Positions 7,504 to 44,923 of a stretch of 64,000 bases of DNA are shown here, one piece after another (position 1 is the first letter of the stretch; each line of letters begins with the position of its first letter). The notes beneath the pieces were generated by a model. That model was not told where the DNA came from. It saw only the letters and a program-made list of their open reading frames with translations, and did no database searches. Both the position numbers and the translations under genes were made by a program. Source of the stretch: Pseudobdellovibrionaceae bacterium (GTDB lineage Bacteria; Bdellovibrionota; Bdellovibrionia; Bdellovibrionales; Bdellovibrionaceae); assembly GCA_044229295.1 (NCBI GenBank), contig JBGATJ010000007.1, forward strand, positions 13,141 through 77,140. The letters run 5' to 3'.

Positions 7504-8667
7504 TTAAGCCTGCGGACGCAAGGTCTCAGTGCTCATCGAAAGGCGTTTGGCGGCTTCCCTAACCTCATCCTCAGTCGTGAATCGGCCTAAACTCACTCGT
7601 ACTGTCGAGTGCGCGTCCTGCTCACTCATTCCAATGGACGCTAAGATATGGCTGGATTGCACGTTTCCAGATTGGCAGGCAGATCCCTGGCTCATGCAAA
7701 GTGAGACAGTTCTTGCGATGAGAGCATCTGAAGAAACTCCTGGCAGGGTGAGGCTGAGAGTGTTGCAAGAGCGCTCAGTGGGATGGCCGTTAAATCGGGC
7801 TGACGGCTGGTTCTGCTGAACAAGGTTAAAGAGTAAATCCCTCAGAGCGGCAATGCGTGGAACCTCTGTCGCCATTTCTTTTTGCGCAAGCTCTGCCGCT
7901 ACTCCAAAGCCGACGATTCCAGCCACATTCAGTGTCGTGCTTCGCAGGCCTTTTTCTTGGCCGCCGCCAAGGAGAAGCGGCGTGAGTTGCACTTTGGGAT
8001 TTTGACTACGAATATAGAGAGCGCCGACACCTTGAGGTCCATAAAACTTGTGAGACGAAAGTGACAAAAGATCAACGCCGAGTTCATTCACGCTTAGAGG
8101 AATTTTTCCAGCACCTTGAGTGGCATCACAATGAAAGTAAACTTTTGCCGACTTCGCGAGAGCTCCCAACTCAGCGATAGGATTGATAGTGCCAAGTTCG
8201 TTGTTAATGGCAACAGTCGTGAGAAGGCGAGTTGTTGGTCGTAGCGCCTTTTGTACCGTCTTAACTTCAAGCTGACCATAAGAGTTGACAGGAAGAAGGT
8301 CGACCTTGGCGCCCCATTTTTCAAGATGTTCTAGAGTTTTTAAAACTGATTTGTGTTCGGCCCTCGAGGAAAGAACATGAAAATCCTCTTGAGGACTAGT
8401 CTCTTTGAATTTTTCAAACAGACCCGTGAGGGCCCAATTGTTACTTTCCGTAGCGCCCGAGGTAAAAATAATTTCCGAAGGCTTACAACTGAGAAGATGA
8501 GCGACCTGCTCCCTAGCCCGAGTCACAGCCTCACTAGCCTTCCACCCATGAGGATGTTGGCTAGCGGGATTTCCAAAGTTCTCCTTATAATAGGGAAGCA
8601 TGGCTTCAAGAGCCCGAGGATCAAGAGGCGTTGTAGAATTGTAATCAAGATAGATGATCTTCTGCAT
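7504..8667 (-). CDS. iscS: Cysteine desulfurase (IscS/NifS class)
   Basis: PLP lysine motif SSHKFYGPQGVGALY. Active-site loop GSACQSG. Adjacent to the IscA-family gene. Confidence 0.87.
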   Translation of the reverse strand: MQKIIYLDYNSTTPLDPRALEAMLPYYKENFGNPASQHPHGWKASEAVTRAREQVAHLLSCKPSEIIFTSGATESNNWALTGLFEKFKETSPQEDFHVLSSRAEHKSVLKTLEHLEKWGAKVDLLPVNSYGQLEVKTVQKALRPTTRLLTTVAINNELGTINPIAELGALAKSAKVYFHCDATQGAGKIPLSVNELGVDLLSLSSHKFYGPQGVGALYIRSQNPKVQLTPLLLGGGQEKGLRSTTLNVAGIVGFGVAAELAQKEMATEVPRIAALRDLLFNLVQQNQPSARFNGHPTERSCNTLSLTLPGVSSDALIARTVSLCMSQGSACQSGNVQSSHILASIGMSEQDAHSTVRVSLGRFTTEDEVREAAKRLSMSTETLRPQA

Positions 8668-8690: not shown

Positions 8691-8803
8691 CGGCAACAGC
8701 AACACTGGCAAACTGACAGCACCAGAAACAGCACCCGAAACAGCATCAGCACCAGCATCAGAGACAGCGCCCGAAACAGCATCAGAGACAGTGCAGAATC
8801 CAG
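8691..8803. repeat. Degenerate NNNCAG-periodic tract (left arm of intergenic element, copy 1)
   Basis: Read directly: gaaacagcaccc/gaaacagcatca/gagacagcgccc/gaaacagcatca units. Roughly the reverse complement of the (GCTGAT)n array 50 bp downstream. Confidence 0.6.
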
Positions 8804-8856
8804 TTTGCTGAAGTTTTTAAAAAAACTCCGAAACTAAACCTGATCTTGAAATTGAA

Positions 8857-8956
8857 GCTGACGCTGATGCTGACGCTGATGCTGATGCTGATGCTGATGC
8901 TGATGCTGGTGCTGATGCTGATGCTGATGCTGATGCTGATGCTGATGCTGATGCTG
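8857..8956. repeat. Hexanucleotide tandem array (GCTGAT)n, 16 units (13 GCTGAT, 2 GCTGAC, 1 GCTGGT)
   Basis: Counted directly in the sequence. Ends 6 nt from the stop codon of the minus-strand gene 8963..10009. Confidence 0.95.
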
Positions 8957-8962
8957 TCAGTG

Positions 8963-10009
8963 TCACCACCGCCAAAACAAATCAAAACTTGGATAGTATC
9001 CAAGTTCAGCGTTGACGTCTTTGGTGTAGCGGAGGCTATTGATATCGTTGGAGTCAAGTTCAAGGGCGAGATGCAGGTGATCCCAAATCATCATGTAGGC
9101 CAGGTAGCCACCTACGGTTTTATTTACGAAGTTGTAAGAAGGGCCAATAAGGACTCGATTCCAGTTCCAACGAATGAATTCGTAGCCGGTTTGGATCGAA
9201 CTGCTCGTGAAATAGTTCACCAGAAGATTTTTGTCATTGGAGTTGACGTTGAGAGCTGAGACGCTCAGACGGGTGTGTGAGACCATGGAGCTGTTGGAAA
9301 TAGAATCCCAATACAGCGATGCTTTGACACTGGTTTGCTTTTCGACCACATCATTATTTTTGACCTGCAGCTGAAGGGCATCAAATCCGATAGAGAGAAC
9401 CTGGGAGTCAAAGCTGTAGAATTTGTACTTTGCGCCGAAGTTATAGGTATTCGCCACCAGACCTGGGACCCAAAGATGAACGGAGGCCTGATTAGTGATC
9501 CCATATCTGTAAAAGCCGAAAATCGAAGCGAGGCTTTCGCCTTGAGCGAGGGTTTCCGCTGTTTCTCCAACAACCGTTCCCTGATACACGAGGGGTTTGA
9601 TACGCGCAGGAACTTCGGGTCGCTCTTTTACGAAAAGTTCCGTACCTCCCAGGTAGAGATCCGGAGGTGGTGCCGTGAGGTCAATTCCTAGGACTTCATC
9701 TCCAGAGAGAACAAAGCGCCCTCTCAAATGTTTTGTAATTTTAAAAGTGAGCTCGTAAGCTGTTGTTCCCAATTTTTTGATGGCAAACAGGTGAACGAAT
9801 GCCAGGATGACCTTTTCATCAGTGCGATCGACAACGGGGTACTCGGTACCTAGTGTCCATGGATGAGCCGACGCTGTTCGGCCCGTGAGTGTGTAGTGAT
9901 CGACAAAATCGACAATTTCAGCTTTTGCTAAAACAGGCTGAGAAAGCGTTTCATCGGCCTTAGAAAATTGAAAAAAAAGAAGTGCCATAAGCACCAAAAA
10001 ATACTGCAT
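8963..10009 (-). CDS. Exported hypothetical protein, possible outer-membrane beta-barrel
   Basis: Signal peptide [18 protein letters not shown]. The C-terminal half has alternating aromatic/polar strands and an aromatic terminus (FWRW). Confidence 0.5.
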
Positions 10010-25195: not shown

Positions 25196-25576
25196 ATGGA
25201 ACCCAAAAAATACGGACAAATCGCCATCGAAGAAAATAGGCTTGAGCGCTTTGAAAATCGCACGCTCGTAAGGCGCTATAAAATTGAGTTCACGTGTCCA
25301 GAGTTTACCTGCCTGTGCCCTCGAAGCGGCTTCCCAGATTTTGCGACCATCCGAATTCGCTACGTTCCTGCCGAGTACTGTGTCGAGCTCAAATCCCTGA
25401 AGCTATACCTCAACGGCTTCCGCAACAAGAACGTCTTTCATGAGGACGTTACGAACAACATCCTCCAAGATCTGGTCGATTTGTTAAATCCCTGGGAGAT
25501 TGAAGTTGTAGGGGATTTTACAGTCAGGGGAAATATTCACACTGTGGTGACGGCGACGCACGCTCGGGAGGTATAG
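25196..25576 (+). CDS. queF: NADPH-dependent 7-cyano-7-deazaguanine reductase (type I QueF)
   Basis: CPEFTCLCPRSGFPDFATIRIRYVP and SLKLYLNGFRN motifs. 126 aa. Confidence 0.9.
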   Translation: MEPKKYGQIAIEENRLERFENRTLVRRYKIEFTCPEFTCLCPRSGFPDFATIRIRYVPAEYCVELKSLKLYLNGFRNKNVFHEDVTNNILQDLVDLLNPWEIEVVGDFTVRGNIHTVVTATHAREV

Positions 25577-25582
25577 TTACGG

Positions 25583-25670
25583 CACCAGCTTCAGCTTCAG
25601 TCCCAACTTCAGCCTCAGCCACAGCCTCAGCCTCAGTATTAGTATCAGTTCAGTAACAGACTCAGTACAG
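25583..25670. repeat. Degenerate NNNCAG-periodic tract (left arm of intergenic element, copy 2)
   Basis: caccag cttcag cttcag ... cctcag ccacag cctcag cctcag ... read directly. Approximate reverse complement of the array at 25810-25903. Confidence 0.6.
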
Positions 25671-25837
25671 TTTACGGTTGGTAACCTGGTTTAAAAAACT
25701 GTTGTCCTGATTCTCAGCGACTATCGGCTCAGAACAAAAAACGGAATCAGGTGGTTTAACGCCGCCTTTAGTATCCAGTTTTTAAGTTTCAGGGGAAGAT
25801 CAACCCAAACTGAGACTTGTGCTGAAGCTGCTACTGT

Positions 25838-25903
25838 GCTGATGCTGATGCTGGTGCTGGTGCTGATGCTGATGCTGATGCTGATGCTGATGCTGATGCT
25901 GAT
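25838..25903. repeat. Hexanucleotide tandem array (GCTGAT)n, 11 units (9 GCTGAT, 2 GCTGGT)
   Basis: Counted directly. Separated by 1 nt from the stop codon (25905-25907) of the minus-strand gene. Confidence 0.95.
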
Positions 25904-25904
25904 G

Positions 25905-27467
25905 CTACATCACCCTCACAGTCTTCATCACAGCCTCCCTCCCCGGAAGTTCAAAATCGTAACTCCAATTTTGGTGAAGAGTGCATCTGTGTTTTAGGGG
26001 AACCGCTTTCTCGCACGCCCTGAGAAACTCGGCTGGGGTCCATGACTCGTAGTTTGTTGAAAATAGAATTTCACCTTCGGGTGCCAGGATCTCGAGCAAG
26101 CTTCCGATAAGCCGACTGAGGTCTTTTTCGATGCGAAAGACCCCTTCGGGACTTCTTGAAAATGAGGGTGGGTCGCAAATGATGAGGTCAAAAAATCGAT
26201 TCTTCTTTTTTGCGCCACGTACGAAAAATAGAGCATCGGATTGGTAAAATTCGTAGGCAGCGGGATTAAGTCCGTTGAGTTTAAAATTTTCTTTGGACCA
26301 GGTTAAAAAAGTTTTGCTGAGGTCTACGGTCACAACCTCTTTGGCTCCACCTAAGGCCGCCGCAAGACTAAATCCGCCGGTGTAAGAAAATAAATTCAAA
26401 ACACGTTTGCCACTTGAAACTTTTTGGATCCAGTTTCGGTTCTCGCGCTGATCCAGAAAAAGACCTGGCGATACGCCGCTCTGCGTGCGGAATTGAAATT
26501 TTCGATCTTCCTCATTCGCTGTCCATACAAAGGGCTCGGGTTGGCTGGTGTAGAGAACCGTGGGCTTAGAGTCTTTTATTTTGCGTAGGTGATTGATCAC
26601 GAGATCGTTTTTAGAAAGCCGCTGACCGAGGTCTTTGAAAAAATCAATCTGCGTGAGCGTGGGCTCCTCGTCATTAAACCAATGGATCCAAAGCACCGGG
26701 CCTAGCAGGTCCGCTCTCCACCCAAGGAAATGATCATGCAAAAGTCGCAAGGTCTGCTCTTGGTTTTGTTGGATTTGATAGAGGTGCTGGCGCCTTCTGA
26801 TTTGCTCTTCAAGATAGCAGGTCTCTGGGTTTTTGAGTTTCTCAAGATCCTCAAAGTAGTTGGGGATGGAAAAAGTAAATTCGTAGCGCTCGCCATTCCA
26901 AAAAAATTCCAGCCGATGTGCGATAAGCGCAAGAACTGGAAAGTCGGCTCCCTCGTAAATCTCGTCCCCCAAAAGGGCTTGTCCTAAACTCTTTGCATGC
27001 AAACGAATTTGGTGAGTCTTGCCGGTCAGTGGACTTGCCTTCCATAGGCTGTGTCGCCCCTGCCTATCAGAACGCAGATATTCAAAGTCGGTGATGGCAT
27101 CGGGCGAGTCGCTGGGGCGGCTCTGAAAAGTTTTTCCGTTCTTTGAAATGGTGCTTTTGACTTGCAACCGAGTTTCCGAAGGCGGCGCTGAGCGTGTGAT
27201 AAAAAGATACTCTTTTTTGATCTTTCCATTTGCGAAAAGTTCGGTGAGTTGAGCCGCCGCGGTTTTGGAGCGCGCGAAGATCATGACTCCACTGGTTTCT
27301 TTATCGAGGCGATGCACAACATAAAGGTTCTCCCCACGCATGATTTCAAGAAACTCGACAAAACCTGGCGTTACCGGGTCGCTTTGGTGGGTGGTGAGCC
27401 CTTTAGGTTTAAAGGCCACCACGAAGTCGTCAAAGACTTGAATTTGGGGAGAAAGCTGCCGTGCCAT
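25905..27467 (-). CDS. Fusion protein: RluA-family pseudouridine synthase + class I SAM-dependent (RlmI-like) methyltransferase
   Basis: N-half has HRLDKETSGVMIFA (catalytic Asp motif). C-half has VLNLFSYTGGFSLAAALGGA and DLIICDPPSFSRS. Confidence 0.8.
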   Translation of the reverse strand: MARQLSPQIQVFDDFVVAFKPKGLTTHQSDPVTPGFVEFLEIMRGENLYVVHRLDKETSGVMIFARSKTAAAQLTELFANGKIKKEYLFITRSAPPSETRLQVKSTISKNGKTFQSRPSDSPDAITDFEYLRSDRQGRHSLWKASPLTGKTHQIRLHAKSLGQALLGDEIYEGADFPVLALIAHRLEFFWNGERYEFTFSIPNYFEDLEKLKNPETCYLEEQIRRRQHLYQIQQNQEQTLRLLHDHFLGWRADLLGPVLWIHWFNDEEPTLTQIDFFKDLGQRLSKNDLVINHLRKIKDSKPTVLYTSQPEPFVWTANEEDRKFQFRTQSGVSPGLFLDQRENRNWIQKVSSGKRVLNLFSYTGGFSLAAALGGAKEVVTVDLSKTFLTWSKENFKLNGLNPAAYEFYQSDALFFVRGAKKKNRFFDLIICDPPSFSRSPEGVFRIEKDLSRLIGSLLEILAPEGEILFSTNYESWTPAEFLRACEKAVPLKHRCTLHQNWSYDFELPGREAVMKTVRVM

Positions 27468-37822: not shown

Positions 37823-37947
37823 CCATAGGGAAAGAGGAGTAAAACTCGGGATCAAAATTGGGAAGCCCAAAGGGCCGCTGCCAGGAAGGCAGCGCCAATT
37901 TTGCAAGGCACGAGCCGATCCCGAGTTTTACTCCTCTTTCCCTATGG
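37823..37947. repeat. Long palindrome: perfect 31-bp inverted arms (37823-37853 / 37917-37947) around a partly self-complementary 63-bp centre
   Basis: Arms CCATAGGGAAAGAGGAGTAAAACTCGGGATC and its exact reverse complement were verified base by base. The right arm contains the last codons and stop of the protease gene. Confidence 0.9.
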
Positions 37948-43073: not shown

Positions 43074-44570
43074 ATGAAAAACATTTTTTGTTTTCTTTTA
43101 TTTGCGACATGGGTTTCGATTTCCGCCCAGGCAAGAGTTCTAGATGTCATCGAACCTTATCTTGCGAATCCTGAGATCGACGTTCTTCATTACAATGTTC
43201 GTGCTAAAGTGGCGCAAATGCCACCTCAGCAGATTGATTTTGAAACCGACCTCACTCTCAAAACACTCACCAACAATCAAACCATCGAGTTGCATGTCGA
43301 ATCCAGCGTGCTAACCGTCGCGAGAGTTCAAAGTTTTGGCAGTGATCTTGCTTTTAATATTCTACCAGGTAAAAGCAATAAATATGGCTTGTCAGGATCC
43401 GTTCTTGAAATTGCACTTCCTCAAAAAAGATCCGCCGGGCAAACGCTCACTCTTAAGATTTTCTATACTGTAAAGAAGAATTTCGAGGCTGACGACAAAG
43501 GCCTTTTTTACACGGCAGGTGGTGGACTCATCACTCGCAACTGGCCCTACTATGGCCGATTCTGGCTCCCTAGCAATGATTCTCCTGATGATGTCGCCAA
43601 TGTGGAATACCACCTTGAAGTTCCAGACGGCTACATGGCCCTGGGTAATGGCTCGTTACTCAAGGGCGATGAGCATTCAGGTTCAGGATTGCAACCGAGT
43701 GGATTGCGACTGTTTGAGTGGGAGCAGAAGGCGACAACCACCGTCTACAATTTTATTTTTGGCGTCGGGAAATTCGATCTTTTTAAGAGCGAAGTTTGTT
43801 TTAATAATGACGGTGAAATCAACGACAAGACTGTCGATTGTGCGCGGGCGGATCGCAAAATCCCTCTGATTGTTTATTATCACAAAACTGATCCAGAAGG
43901 GCCGGCGATAATTAAGAGCGTTCAAGAAGCGGCGTTGTCTGCGGTGTATTTCTCAAAACTCCTTGGGCCATTTATCTTTGATAAACTGGGGTTTGTTATA
44001 AGCCCTTATCCATTTGCCATGGAGTCTACGTCGATGATTGTGCTTACGGGTTCTAAAAATGCCGTCCATGAAGTGGCCCATCATTGGTGGGGGAATAACG
44101 TGCATTTCGCGCATTGGGGTGATTTTTGGATCAGTGAGGGATTTACAACCTACTTCAATGGGCTTTACGACGAATACAAGACAGGAACCAATAGTTCCTG
44201 CCTTGCAAATCCAGCAGAAGACTTGAACCATCCGGCAAATACAGATGCCAATGACATTTTCAATTCAACTCCCTATTGCAAAGGAGCTCTTGCTCTAAAT
44301 ACGCTCAGACAGGAGATTCGGGAGTTGGTTGGTAAAGATGTTTTTCTGGATTTGATGTCGGCACTCTACAAACAGTACAAGGGTGGAAGACTCTCATCGC
44401 TAGATATCGTCAATTTTGTTGATAAGAATCTTGTCGGGATTTTGGCAGCTCAGGGACTTAAGGCTGAGCAAGAGCAAGTGAGTGCTCTTGCCGAGAAGTG
44501 GAGAAGGGAGTTTATCGTAATAGAACTGGCCCCTCAGATTGTTAATAGGAACTGTTATTTCTGTATTTAG
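43074..44570 (+). CDS. Secreted M1-family zinc aminopeptidase
   Basis: Signal peptide. FAMES exopeptidase-motif variant, HEVAHHWWGN (HEXXH) and WISEGFTTY (downstream Glu). Confidence 0.87.
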   Translation: MKNIFCFLLFATWVSISAQARVLDVIEPYLANPEIDVLHYNVRAKVAQMPPQQIDFETDLTLKTLTNNQTIELHVESSVLTVARVQSFGSDLAFNILPGKSNKYGLSGSVLEIALPQKRSAGQTLTLKIFYTVKKNFEADDKGLFYTAGGGLITRNWPYYGRFWLPSNDSPDDVANVEYHLEVPDGYMALGNGSLLKGDEHSGSGLQPSGLRLFEWEQKATTTVYNFIFGVGKFDLFKSEVCFNNDGEINDKTVDCARADRKIPLIVYYHKTDPEGPAIIKSVQEAALSAVYFSKLLGPFIFDKLGFVISPYPFAMESTSMIVLTGSKNAVHEVAHHWWGNNVHFAHWGDFWISEGFTTYFNGLYDEYKTGTNSSCLANPAEDLNHPANTDANDIFNSTPYCKGALALNTLRQEIRELVGKDVFLDLMSALYKQYKGGRLSSLDIVNFVDKNLVGILAAQGLKAEQEQVSALAEKWRREFIVIELAPQIVNRNCYFCI

Positions 44571-44663
44571 CCGGCGATTCTTCTGTTTTCGGGACCCTGC
44601 TCTCTAAGGACTCGGCTCTCTGGCCCAGTTGGTGAGAGCATGTAACGCGCAAACTGGTTCTTC

Positions 44664-44923
44664 ATGCTTAATAAATTCAGCGCTTATAACCTGGCCATCC
44701 AATTCTATAAGCGTTGTGCAAAAGTAATGGAGCTCTCTTCACGACTCACAAGCCATTTTGCATTTGCTCACCGAATCCGAATCTGCATTACAAGCCAGAA
44801 AATGAGGCGAACACCTTGGAGATTGTATTTTCAAATTTGTGTCGTGCCTTAGACAAAAAAGTGAACCCAACTGGGTCAGAGAGCTGGGTCCTTATCGTAA
44901 TCCCTTCTCAGGTCACAAACTAG
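44664..44923 (+). pseudogene. Possible degenerate four-helix-bundle (23S rRNA IVS-type) protein gene
   Basis: N-terminus MLNKFSAYNLAIQFYKRC resembles that family. The ORF stops at 62 aa and a second frame continues. Confidence 0.25.

Follow-up and report, generated by a model that had tools for sequence, protein, structure and literature searches.

A gene-less family of CAGCNY-armed foldback repeats behind stop codons in a Bdellovibrionota genome, with possible descent from PF05635 cassettes

In the genome of a Pseudobdellovibrionaceae bacterium of the phylum Bdellovibrionota, a stretch of 64,000 nucleotides (contig C91:13141-77140, from here on called the window) carries a composite element between an iscS-like gene and the gene for a 348-aa protein. 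This element (copy 1, window 8691-8962) consists of a CAG-periodic left arm, a short centre and a right arm dominated by GCTGAT hexamers. It is a gene-less, slippage-expanded member of a dispersed foldback (hairpin) repeat family, which occupies about 23 loci in this genome and has a second copy in the window (copy 2, 25583-25904). The explanation that we prefer, with a probability of about 0.6 for the whole of it, is that the family descends from cassettes carrying a PF05635 gene and that its members form transcript hairpins behind stop codons, probably of an RNase III-type nature. The host genome (4.64 Mb, 46% G+C, 119 contigs, 100% complete) is the sole representative of its genus in the genome collection. 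Positions refer to the window unless a contig is named.

Structure and census of the repeat family

An earlier note, made from the letters alone, had described copy 1 as a periodic arm, a spacer and a 16-unit array, with a second copy of the same layout at 25583-25903. The three-part layout, the coordinates and the unit counts were all found again in the sequence, and the second copy was recovered at 25583-25904. Counted by eye from 8857, the right array of copy 1 is made of 13 GCTGAT, 2 GCTGAC and 1 GCTGGT, giving 16 units, and is followed by GCTGTC. Tandem Repeats Finder placed it at 8853-8956 (period 6, 17.3 copies, 93% matches, score 180) and reported the left tract at 8716-8791, both with a period of 12 (6.3 copies) and with a period of 36 (1.9 copies, 90%). 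The inner end of the left arm reads CAGTGC AGAATC CAGTTT, and the motif GTTTTTAAAAAAACT in the centre (8814-8828) is a small palindrome. The repeat tracts of copy 2, at 25585-25671 and 25820-25906, follow the same layout.

The genome was searched for further copies by periodicity scans, blastn and an nhmmer arm model built from the arms of this genome, and all three converged on about 23 loci, of which 15 are two-armed and eight one-armed (Table 1). Runs of five consecutive CAGCNY units occur 29 times in the genome, as against none for the reversed control pattern. The possibility that the two window copies are coincidental microsatellites is ruled out by this census. When all arms were read unit by unit, the left arms and the reverse-complemented right arms were found to follow a common consensus, which reads from the outside inwards (CAGCAC/CAGCAT)n CAGCAT TAGCCT CAGCCT CAGCTT CAGTAC AGTTTC AGT, which makes the arms genuine inverted copies of a hexamer-periodic sequence of about 45 nt.

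All arms parse into hexamers, the unit set is limited to CAGC followed by AC, AT, CT or TT, and the family has a conserved, non-repetitive inner core, CAGTACAGTTTCAG. The 21-mer core ACTGTACTGAAGCTGAGGCTG, with up to three mismatches allowed, is present 19 times in this genome versus 0-2 times per genome in 100 genomes of the same taxonomic family. Expansion is confined to the outer units, and the outer CAGCAY units behave as a microsatellite. Arms are 4 to 36 units or 50-230 nt long (the maximum of 36 units being reached by the right arm at C91:108028), and some show higher-order repeats of 12, 24 or 36 nt. The two window copies have the most degenerate inner cores of the family, and their arms are among the most expanded. 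The right arm of copy 1 matches the arm model with nhmmer E-values of 3e-9 to 8e-9. Its left arm gives a weak match (E 0.003) and was counted in the family because of its unit grammar, the terminal motif CTGACAGCAC that it has in common with the copy on C41, and a centre that matches those on C68 and C102; the stretch CCAGTTTGCTGAAGTTTT of this centre shares 92% identity over 24 nt with the C68:33060 centre.

The centres of the 15 two-armed copies are between 2 nt (C65) and about 350 nt long. An unrelated miniature inverted-repeat transposable element (MITE) of 172 bp is nested in the longest centre, and the centre of this copy (C25:16632) was for that reason dismissed as a part of the family. 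The MITE itself (C25:16802-16975) has terminal inverted repeats of about 26 bp, AAACTGGAACCCAATAATGTTGG, and is present in seven copies with 81-96% identity.

A long mismatched hairpin had been proposed for copy 1, and folding calculations bear this out. Copy 1 as a whole folds at -132 kcal/mol (z -10.1; 0 of 200 shuffles folded as well) and copy 2 at -150 kcal/mol (z -9.5). Over all 15 two-armed copies the z-scores lie between -2.5 and -15.6, at or below -6.2 in 14 of them, and the longest uninterrupted helices measure 9-38 bp. The proposed complementarity of about five in six positions per unit has to be revised in part: the arms do pair, but only four of the six positions (CAGC:GCTG) are invariantly complementary, and the other two pair only where the units coincide. 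Pairing is generic through CAGC:GCTG, and the arms drift independently by slippage. Comparison with Rfam gave sub-threshold chance matches only (isrG, 27 bits against a gathering score of 100), and neither intrinsic (Rho-independent, T-tailed) terminators nor sigma-70 promoters were predicted inside either window copy.

Outside this genome, the family was not found in 100-150 genomes of the same taxonomic family, one genus excepted, and an exact-pattern scan of 185,579 genomes (one per bacterial or archaeal species) and of the Joint Genome Institute (JGI) metagenomes returned only single matches at chance level. The suggestion of a genome-specific repeat family with a 3' structure thus proved right, with about 23 loci and one arm consensus here and otherwise one genus of the same family. 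CAG-periodic arrays in the related genomes G003, G033, G036 (contig C65), G064 and G110 were rejected as copies of this element, being coding sequence for Pro-Ala or Gly-Ala linkers. A (GCTGAT)10 array was also seen in G036, at positions 1497-1557 of stretch L018 (G036:C39:2662-5691), at the 3' end of a putative glutamate racemase (murI) gene. It adjoins a gap of 96 N, and the open reading frame (ORF) appears to read into it; the array may be a gene-less cousin of the CAGCNY family in another genus.

Position relative to stop codons

The distances between elements and stop codons were taken from a crude map of long ORFs, with the junctions read by eye. At 21 of the 23 loci, the gap between a stop codon and the outer end of an arm measures 0-17 nt, or the two overlap. 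Where both neighbouring genes are on the same strand, the element was found on the stop side in every case (11/11), 0-17 nt from the stop and 20-170 nt from the next start. The CAG arm always comes first and the CTG arm second, so that (CAGCNY)n immediately follows the stop of every adjacent gene, regardless of strand. The copies on C41, C42 and C65 begin with TAA-CAG.

Copy 1 borders with its last bases on the stop codon of the 348-aa gene, and the outer end of its left arm is 23 nt away from the iscS-like start codon (8667). The minus-strand junction reads TGA CAC TGA CAG CAT, which confirms that the array stands in the Gln-His frame after two in-frame stops. The stop of the 348-aa gene is native, as 11 orthologues from other genera end in ...YWR[F/W/Y] followed by the stop where this protein ends in ...FWRW. 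Among 5.8 billion proteins, the nearest relative of the 348-aa protein is 31% identical; no record of it was found in other assemblies, and close relatives are absent from the protein and contig collections. The related genomes belong to other genera, with protein identities of 29-43%, and lack the arrangement with iscS that is seen here. Copy 2 lies between two convergent genes, queF and a gene for an RluA-methyltransferase fusion. Its left arm begins 6 nt past the queF stop codon (25574-25576), its final base directly precedes the TAG stop (25905-25907) of the fusion gene, and its array is, like that of copy 1, in the Gln-His frame behind the stop of the neighbouring gene.

Two roles that had been suggested for the array concern this junction, namely a slippage-prone contingency (phase-variable) tract and a cryptic His-Gln tail that is reached by read-through of the stop codon. 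Perfect runs of 5-7 units, as reported by Tandem Repeats Finder in the hexamer arrays, point to recent slippage, the Gln-His frame behind the stop is seen in both window copies, and open frames run a few codons into the arm at four other loci (C1, C114, C65 and C54). However, a 6-nt unit cannot shift a reading frame, the tract follows the native stop, copy 1 has a second stop two codons on, no promoter is predicted there, and the tract lies in no promoter spacer. Relative to the upstream stop, CAG falls into the three frames 11/3/6 times over 20 junctions, which is not significant, and the excess of frame 0 is explained by the terminal TAA-CAG motifs. Neither role withstood these results, and both are now hardly credible. 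The three tails in the Gln-His frame (C1, C114 and C65) end where a CATTAG variant unit supplies a TAG, and such short tails look like by-products of elements that overlap gene ends.

Another hairpin on a gene end was observed at 37823-37947, where the stop codon of a serine protease gene is part of a 125-bp palindrome whose arms are perfect over 31 bp. The palindrome is unrelated in sequence to the CAG family.

Table 1. Coordinates of the window copies, their neighbours, further loci of the family and related features
Feature	Position	Strand	Remarks
Copy 1, left arm	8691..8806		degenerate CAGCNY units (CAGCAC, CAGCAT, CAGAAA, CAGAGA, others); 12/36-nt higher-order repeat
Copy 1, centre (hairpin loop region)	8807..8834		contains GTTTTTAAAAAAACT
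Copy 1, right arm	8835..8962		inner units degenerate; then 16 GCTGAY/GCTGGT units (8857-8952), then GCTGTCAGTG
Native TGA stop of 348-aa gene	8963..8965	minus	element begins at next base
348-aa gene	8963..10009	minus	no Pfam family match
iscS-like gene	7504..8667	minus	Aminotran_5, E 2e-73
Copy 2, left arm	25583..25675		CAGCTT CAGCTT ... CAGCCT CAGTAT TAGTAT ... CAGTACAGTTT; nhmmer E 1e-7
Copy 2, centre, ~130 nt	25676..25804		no coding signal, no PF05635 remnant
Copy 2, right arm	25805..25904		AAACTGAGACTTGTGCTGAAGCTG, then 11 GCTGAT/GCTGGT units; nhmmer E 2e-10
Two-armed loci (15)	C1:78553, C25:16632, C25:21964, C41:8696, C55:21800, C65:16869, C67:128427, C68:33000, C91:1466, both window copies, C91:107773, C101:64231, C102:15076, C114:9538		
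One-armed loci (8)	C14, C20, C21, C25:34912, C42, C54, C65:10908, C102:2990		
Frame into arm	C1 78658..79668	minus	Gln-His frame; ends ...QNQQQQQRQH and stop
Frame into arm	C114		Gln-His frame; ends ...MEQH and stop
Frame into arm	C65 9986..10921		Gln-His frame; ends ...AKHQ and stop
Frame into arm (fourth)	C54 7942..8541	minus	
~500-bp PF05635 cassette, examples	C34:38485, C69:5740, C69:27577, C34:2085, C18, C28, C50, C92		
PF05635 genes in GGCATAN or GGCAA-type arms	C75:21100-21620, C63:18440-18800, C34:10760-11400		
~172-bp MITE, six solo copies	C102:2663, C114:17790, C48:9247, C16:8483, C119:88388, C26:49718		

PF05635 cassettes and the proposed origin

PF05635 is the family of the '23S rRNA intervening-sequence protein', an Avd-like four-helix bundle. 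The genome has nine matches to its Pfam model, and with a genome-specific model such genes, whether intact or decayed, were detected in about 20 intergenic regions. Most of the copies whose flanks were inspected sit between inverted tandem-unit arms of other families, namely GGCATAN, GGCAA-type and GGACCCAGSTCTCT. A cassette of about 500 bp with arms of the GGACCCAGSTCTCT family is present at no fewer than nine loci, intact or decayed, in both orientations and with 80-93% identity, and PF05635 cassettes have therefore multiplied within this genome. One decayed copy of this cassette is located in the window (44570-44895), between inverted arms ...GGGACCCTGCTCTCTAAGGACTCGGCTCTCTGGCCCAGTTGG... 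and their complement. For the two further arm families around PF05635 genes, the genome has about 32 arm matches (GGCATAN) and about 30 (GGCAA-type, which ends in ...ATTCAGCCGAGG); on C75 the TAA stop of the upstream gene is inside the first GGCATAA unit. A resemblance between the centre of the C68 copy and the flank of a PF05635 fragment on C109 (41 nt, 83%) was too weak and was not used.

Arms of the CAG type were found around a PF05635 gene in a genome of the same family and another genus (G015, 72% complete). On contig C225 of this genome, a left arm CAGCCG CAGCCA CAGCAT TAGCCG CAGCGA CAGTTT CAGT (nhmmer E 9e-8) and an inverted right arm, which matches the arm model of the present genome with E 5e-7, bracket an intact PF05635 ORF (E 4e-14) and a nested IS5-family element. 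The left arm begins 33 nt past a stop codon, and the TGA stop of the PF05635 ORF is inside the right arm (...GACTGAAACTG TCGCTG CGGCTA ATGCTG TGGCTG CGGCTG). A second, gene-less copy of the CAG-type element is present on contig C35 of G015. The IS5-family element, at positions 600-1394 of stretch L104 (G015:C225:349-3570), has the left CAG-type arm on one side and the PF05635 gene on the other; it encodes DUF4096 and DDE_Tnp_1 with a frameshift between the ORFs and has its own ends.

In G036, a PF05635 ORF on contig C112 is located between hexamer arms of the TAGCAT type (49-nt inverted repeat, 96%). The PF05635 proteins of G015 and G036, both of which have hexamer arms of the form YAGCNN, are 62% identical to each other, whereas they share 35-47% identity with those of the present genome. 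Judged from these sequences, arm type and protein clade may go together, and the present genome may have lost the gene matching its CAG arms. PF05635 proteins are homologous to Avd, which serves diversity-generating retroelements as an accessory protein (PMC10053308), and this homology suggests that they might bind nucleic acids rather than act as catalysts.

These relations form the background for the proposed origin. The CAGCNY family would have been derived from PF05635 cassettes, whose build resembles that of 23S rRNA intervening sequences, and would since have lost the gene. Transcribed together with the upstream gene, an element would give rise to a long imperfect double-stranded RNA stem, in which unbroken helices would extend over 10-38 bp. 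By analogy with rRNA intervening sequences, this stem would probably be cut by RNase III; otherwise it might serve as a barrier to 3' exonucleases. The intervening sequence in the 23S rRNA of Coxiella burnetii, which carries a gene of the PF05635 family, is excised by RNase III (PMC4990558). An RNase III gene is encoded in the present genome, and its 23S rRNA has no insert (match of 2930 nt for a model of 2925 positions). The stem would mark the end of the transcript or part the upstream from the downstream cistron. Copy 1 is proposed as such a message separator. It ends 23 nt before the iscS start without a predicted promoter, and its stem would split the message of the outer-membrane-like 348-aa gene from the iscS-iscA message. 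The elements are probably selfish or near neutral, and it is proposed that they would be tolerated only behind stops because the stem is removable or harmless there.

The persistence of long palindromes might have a further basis. SbcD and SbcC form a nuclease that cleaves DNA hairpins and palindromes. Neither of the two was detected in this genome, and SbcD was found in one of 30 relatives, while a control search finds it in 13 of 14 model genomes. The absence of SbcCD may help long palindromes to persist in this clade.

The origin of the family could also be sought in an ordinary MITE, that is, a deletion derivative of an insertion sequence which is moved in trans by a DDE transposase through its terminal inverted repeats. 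Inverted arms, the lack of a gene and many dispersed intergenic copies would agree with this, and the genome does hold other true MITEs as well as insertion sequences. Matching flanking dinucleotides were seen by eye in two of the four copies with definable ends (TA/TA at C65 and CA/CA at copy 1). The other two show TA/TT (C41) and TA/TC (C91:1460), however, so that no consistent target duplication is apparent, and the microsatellite ends blur the junctions. Furthermore, the conserved part of the arm is the inner one, whereas the outermost bases, which a transposase needs for recognition, vary in sequence and length. A blastn search of all elements against the genome revealed no longer element with these ends, and the sole gene found between such arms is PF05635 and not a transposase, the IS5-family element in G015 being nested with ends of its own. 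An ordinary MITE is hence distinctly unlikely.

According to a different explanation, the arms would offer repeated binding sites to a DNA-binding protein, for example a nucleoid-associated protein or a global regulator, and the hairpin potential would be incidental. Recognition of a unit, more than that of a stem, would fit the restricted unit set in both arms of all copies, which is retained though the arms evolve independently. One intergenic region can hold arms of different families, as follows from two regions between convergent genes (C20:21431-21815 and C25:34755-34965) which have a CAG-type arm at one stop and a GGCAA-type arm at the other. For Geobacter metallireducens, PMC2700814 gives 24, 21 and 8 such pairs, some of them class-mixed, and suggests binding of IHF or HU. 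The position of the elements, however, is tied to stops and not to promoters, with two of the 23 loci between divergent genes, and 4 to 36 units are odd for a regulatory site. No candidate protein is known, and a PF05635 protein bound to the arms would merge this explanation with descent from PF05635 cassettes. Binding-site arrays as such are considered unlikely.

Several observations weigh against the descent from PF05635 cassettes and the transcript hairpin. None of the 23 CAG-type loci holds a PF05635 remnant by tblastn or the genome-specific hidden Markov model (best E 0.88), and the link to the gene depends on a single clear locus, in a genome that is 72% complete and belongs to another genus, together with resemblance. 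The low complexity of the arms means that the nhmmer E-values may flatter the matches. Two of the loci (C14 and C91:107773) are between divergent gene starts and not behind a stop codon. No mobilising enzyme, target-site duplication or empty site was found, the relatives available for comparison being other genera. Left arms pair with their own right arms no better than with foreign ones (permutation p 0.54), and therefore there is no evidence from covariation for selection on the stem.

The descent from PF05635 cassettes can be extended to a more general scheme, which we hold only tentatively and regard as possible rather than probable. The CAGCNY elements would then belong, as non-autonomous members, to a widespread class of mobile 'intervening sequences of mRNA'. 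The full-length forms of this class would carry a PF05635 gene and insert at or immediately behind stops, they would be tolerated because their stem is removed from the transcript by RNase III, and the protein would recognise the tandem units of the arm family to which it belongs. The 23 gene-less copies would have outlived their cognate gene, with arm type and protein subclade co-inherited elsewhere in the family. Such a class was not found described as such in print.

Comparison with known repeats

To our knowledge, reports of inverted tandem-unit arrays behind bacterial genes go back decades, and neither the origin nor the function of these arrays is known. The earlier note knew of no described element of this form, which has to be corrected, since analogues have been published for Xanthomonas (PMC4692102), Geobacter metallireducens (PMC2700814) and cyanobacteria (PMC2670836).

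In Xanthomonas campestris and X. axonopodis, arrays of the heptamer GGGAATC were described with about 185 copies, including 70-75 convergent pairs (Rehm et al. 2015, PMC4692102). Their mean distance is 28 nt from the upstream ORF versus 160 nt from the next one, and some overlap stops. The present family resembles them as a set of dispersed intergenic arrays of short units which are often convergent, capable of forming stem-loops and variable in unit number (2-26 there), and which are nearer to the stop of the upstream ORF than to the next ORF. In contrast, the unit there is 7 nt long, G-rich and capable of forming G-quadruplexes, whereas the 6-nt CAGCNY unit has no G-runs; the G-rich, quadruplex-forming heptamer of Xanthomonas and Nostoc was thus not found in the hexamer arms. 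The conserved inner core CAGTACAGTTTCAG and the variable centres that accept nested repeats are further differences of the present family, and about 185 copies there compare with about 23 here. PMC4692102 names no associated gene.

Paired tandem repeats were also described in Geobacter metallireducens as 'global regulator binding sites' of classes 1-3 (Aklujkar et al. 2009, PMC2700814). Like the present arms, they comprise several classes per genome and form opposite-strand pairs at variable distance (3-5 units of 7-9 nt there). Some sites combine two classes, comparable to the mixed regions on C20 and C25, and insertion sequences land beside them. Unlike the present arms, they are octamers or heptamers with little expansion and were read as sites of the IHF/HU type. 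Stop codons are not mentioned in the text that was read.

The short tandemly repeated repetitive (STRR) sequences of cyanobacteria are intergenic heptamer hairpins, for example in the hupS-hupL intergenic region, with one site near the 3' end of a gene (PMC2670836). Roles in transcript stability, termination or coupling were proposed for them and not shown (PMC2670836). They are likewise intergenic and made of tandem short units that form hairpins, but they are heptamers from another phylum, and no common arm consensus with an inner core was described.

Full-length relatives of the present family share with the intervening sequence found in Coxiella burnetii and its S23p gene (PF05635; Warrier et al. 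2016, PMC4990558) an inverted-repeat stem that encloses a PF05635 gene. The Coxiella sequence is regarded as a selfish element with a decaying ORF (PMC4990558). It is located in helix 45 of 23S rRNA, whereas the elements described here are behind the stops of protein genes and the CAG-type copies are gene-less.

The present elements share with repetitive extragenic palindromic (REP) sequences, bacterial interspersed mosaic elements (BIMEs) and hairpin-forming REP doublets (REPINs) the extragenic palindromes at 3' ends or between cistrons and the mosaics that attract other insertions. In enterobacteria and pseudomonads, these repeats are 20-40 nt long, non-periodic, present in hundreds of copies and linked to a REP-associated tyrosine transposase (RAYT), and they stabilise upstream mRNA. 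It was considered whether the CAGCNY family might be a REP/REPIN-type repeat moved by a RAYT, as an extragenic palindromic doublet with a variable spacer at 3' ends would suggest. The genome contains seven weak matches to Y1_Tnp (PF01797), but none of the seven genes adjoins a CAG or CTG arm, and a link to a RAYT was not found here. The arms are longer and hexamer-periodic, with 50-230 nt of tandem hexamers instead of a REP of 20-40 nt with a GTAG or CGTC head, and there are about 23 copies and not hundreds. An origin of this kind is very improbable.

The element represents a variant, gene-less and built of hexamers, of a kind of repeat that is known but still unexplained. To what has been described, it adds a hexamer-unit family in a new phylum and a positional rule, by which (CAGCNY)n comes immediately after a stop codon on either strand. 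It further adds arms that sometimes overlap gene ends, with the stop inside the arm and a short C-terminal tail encoded, and one arm type that accompanies a PF05635 gene in one genus, while its 23 copies in another genus lack the gene. The latter case supports the view that such unexplained repeats might be decayed or non-autonomous relatives of intervening-sequence cassettes of the rRNA type, and offers a testable model, in which RNase III would cleave the hairpins in mRNA and a four-helix-bundle protein would bind the arm units. For the annotation of this genome, the elements account for several overlong intergenic regions and several odd C-termini.

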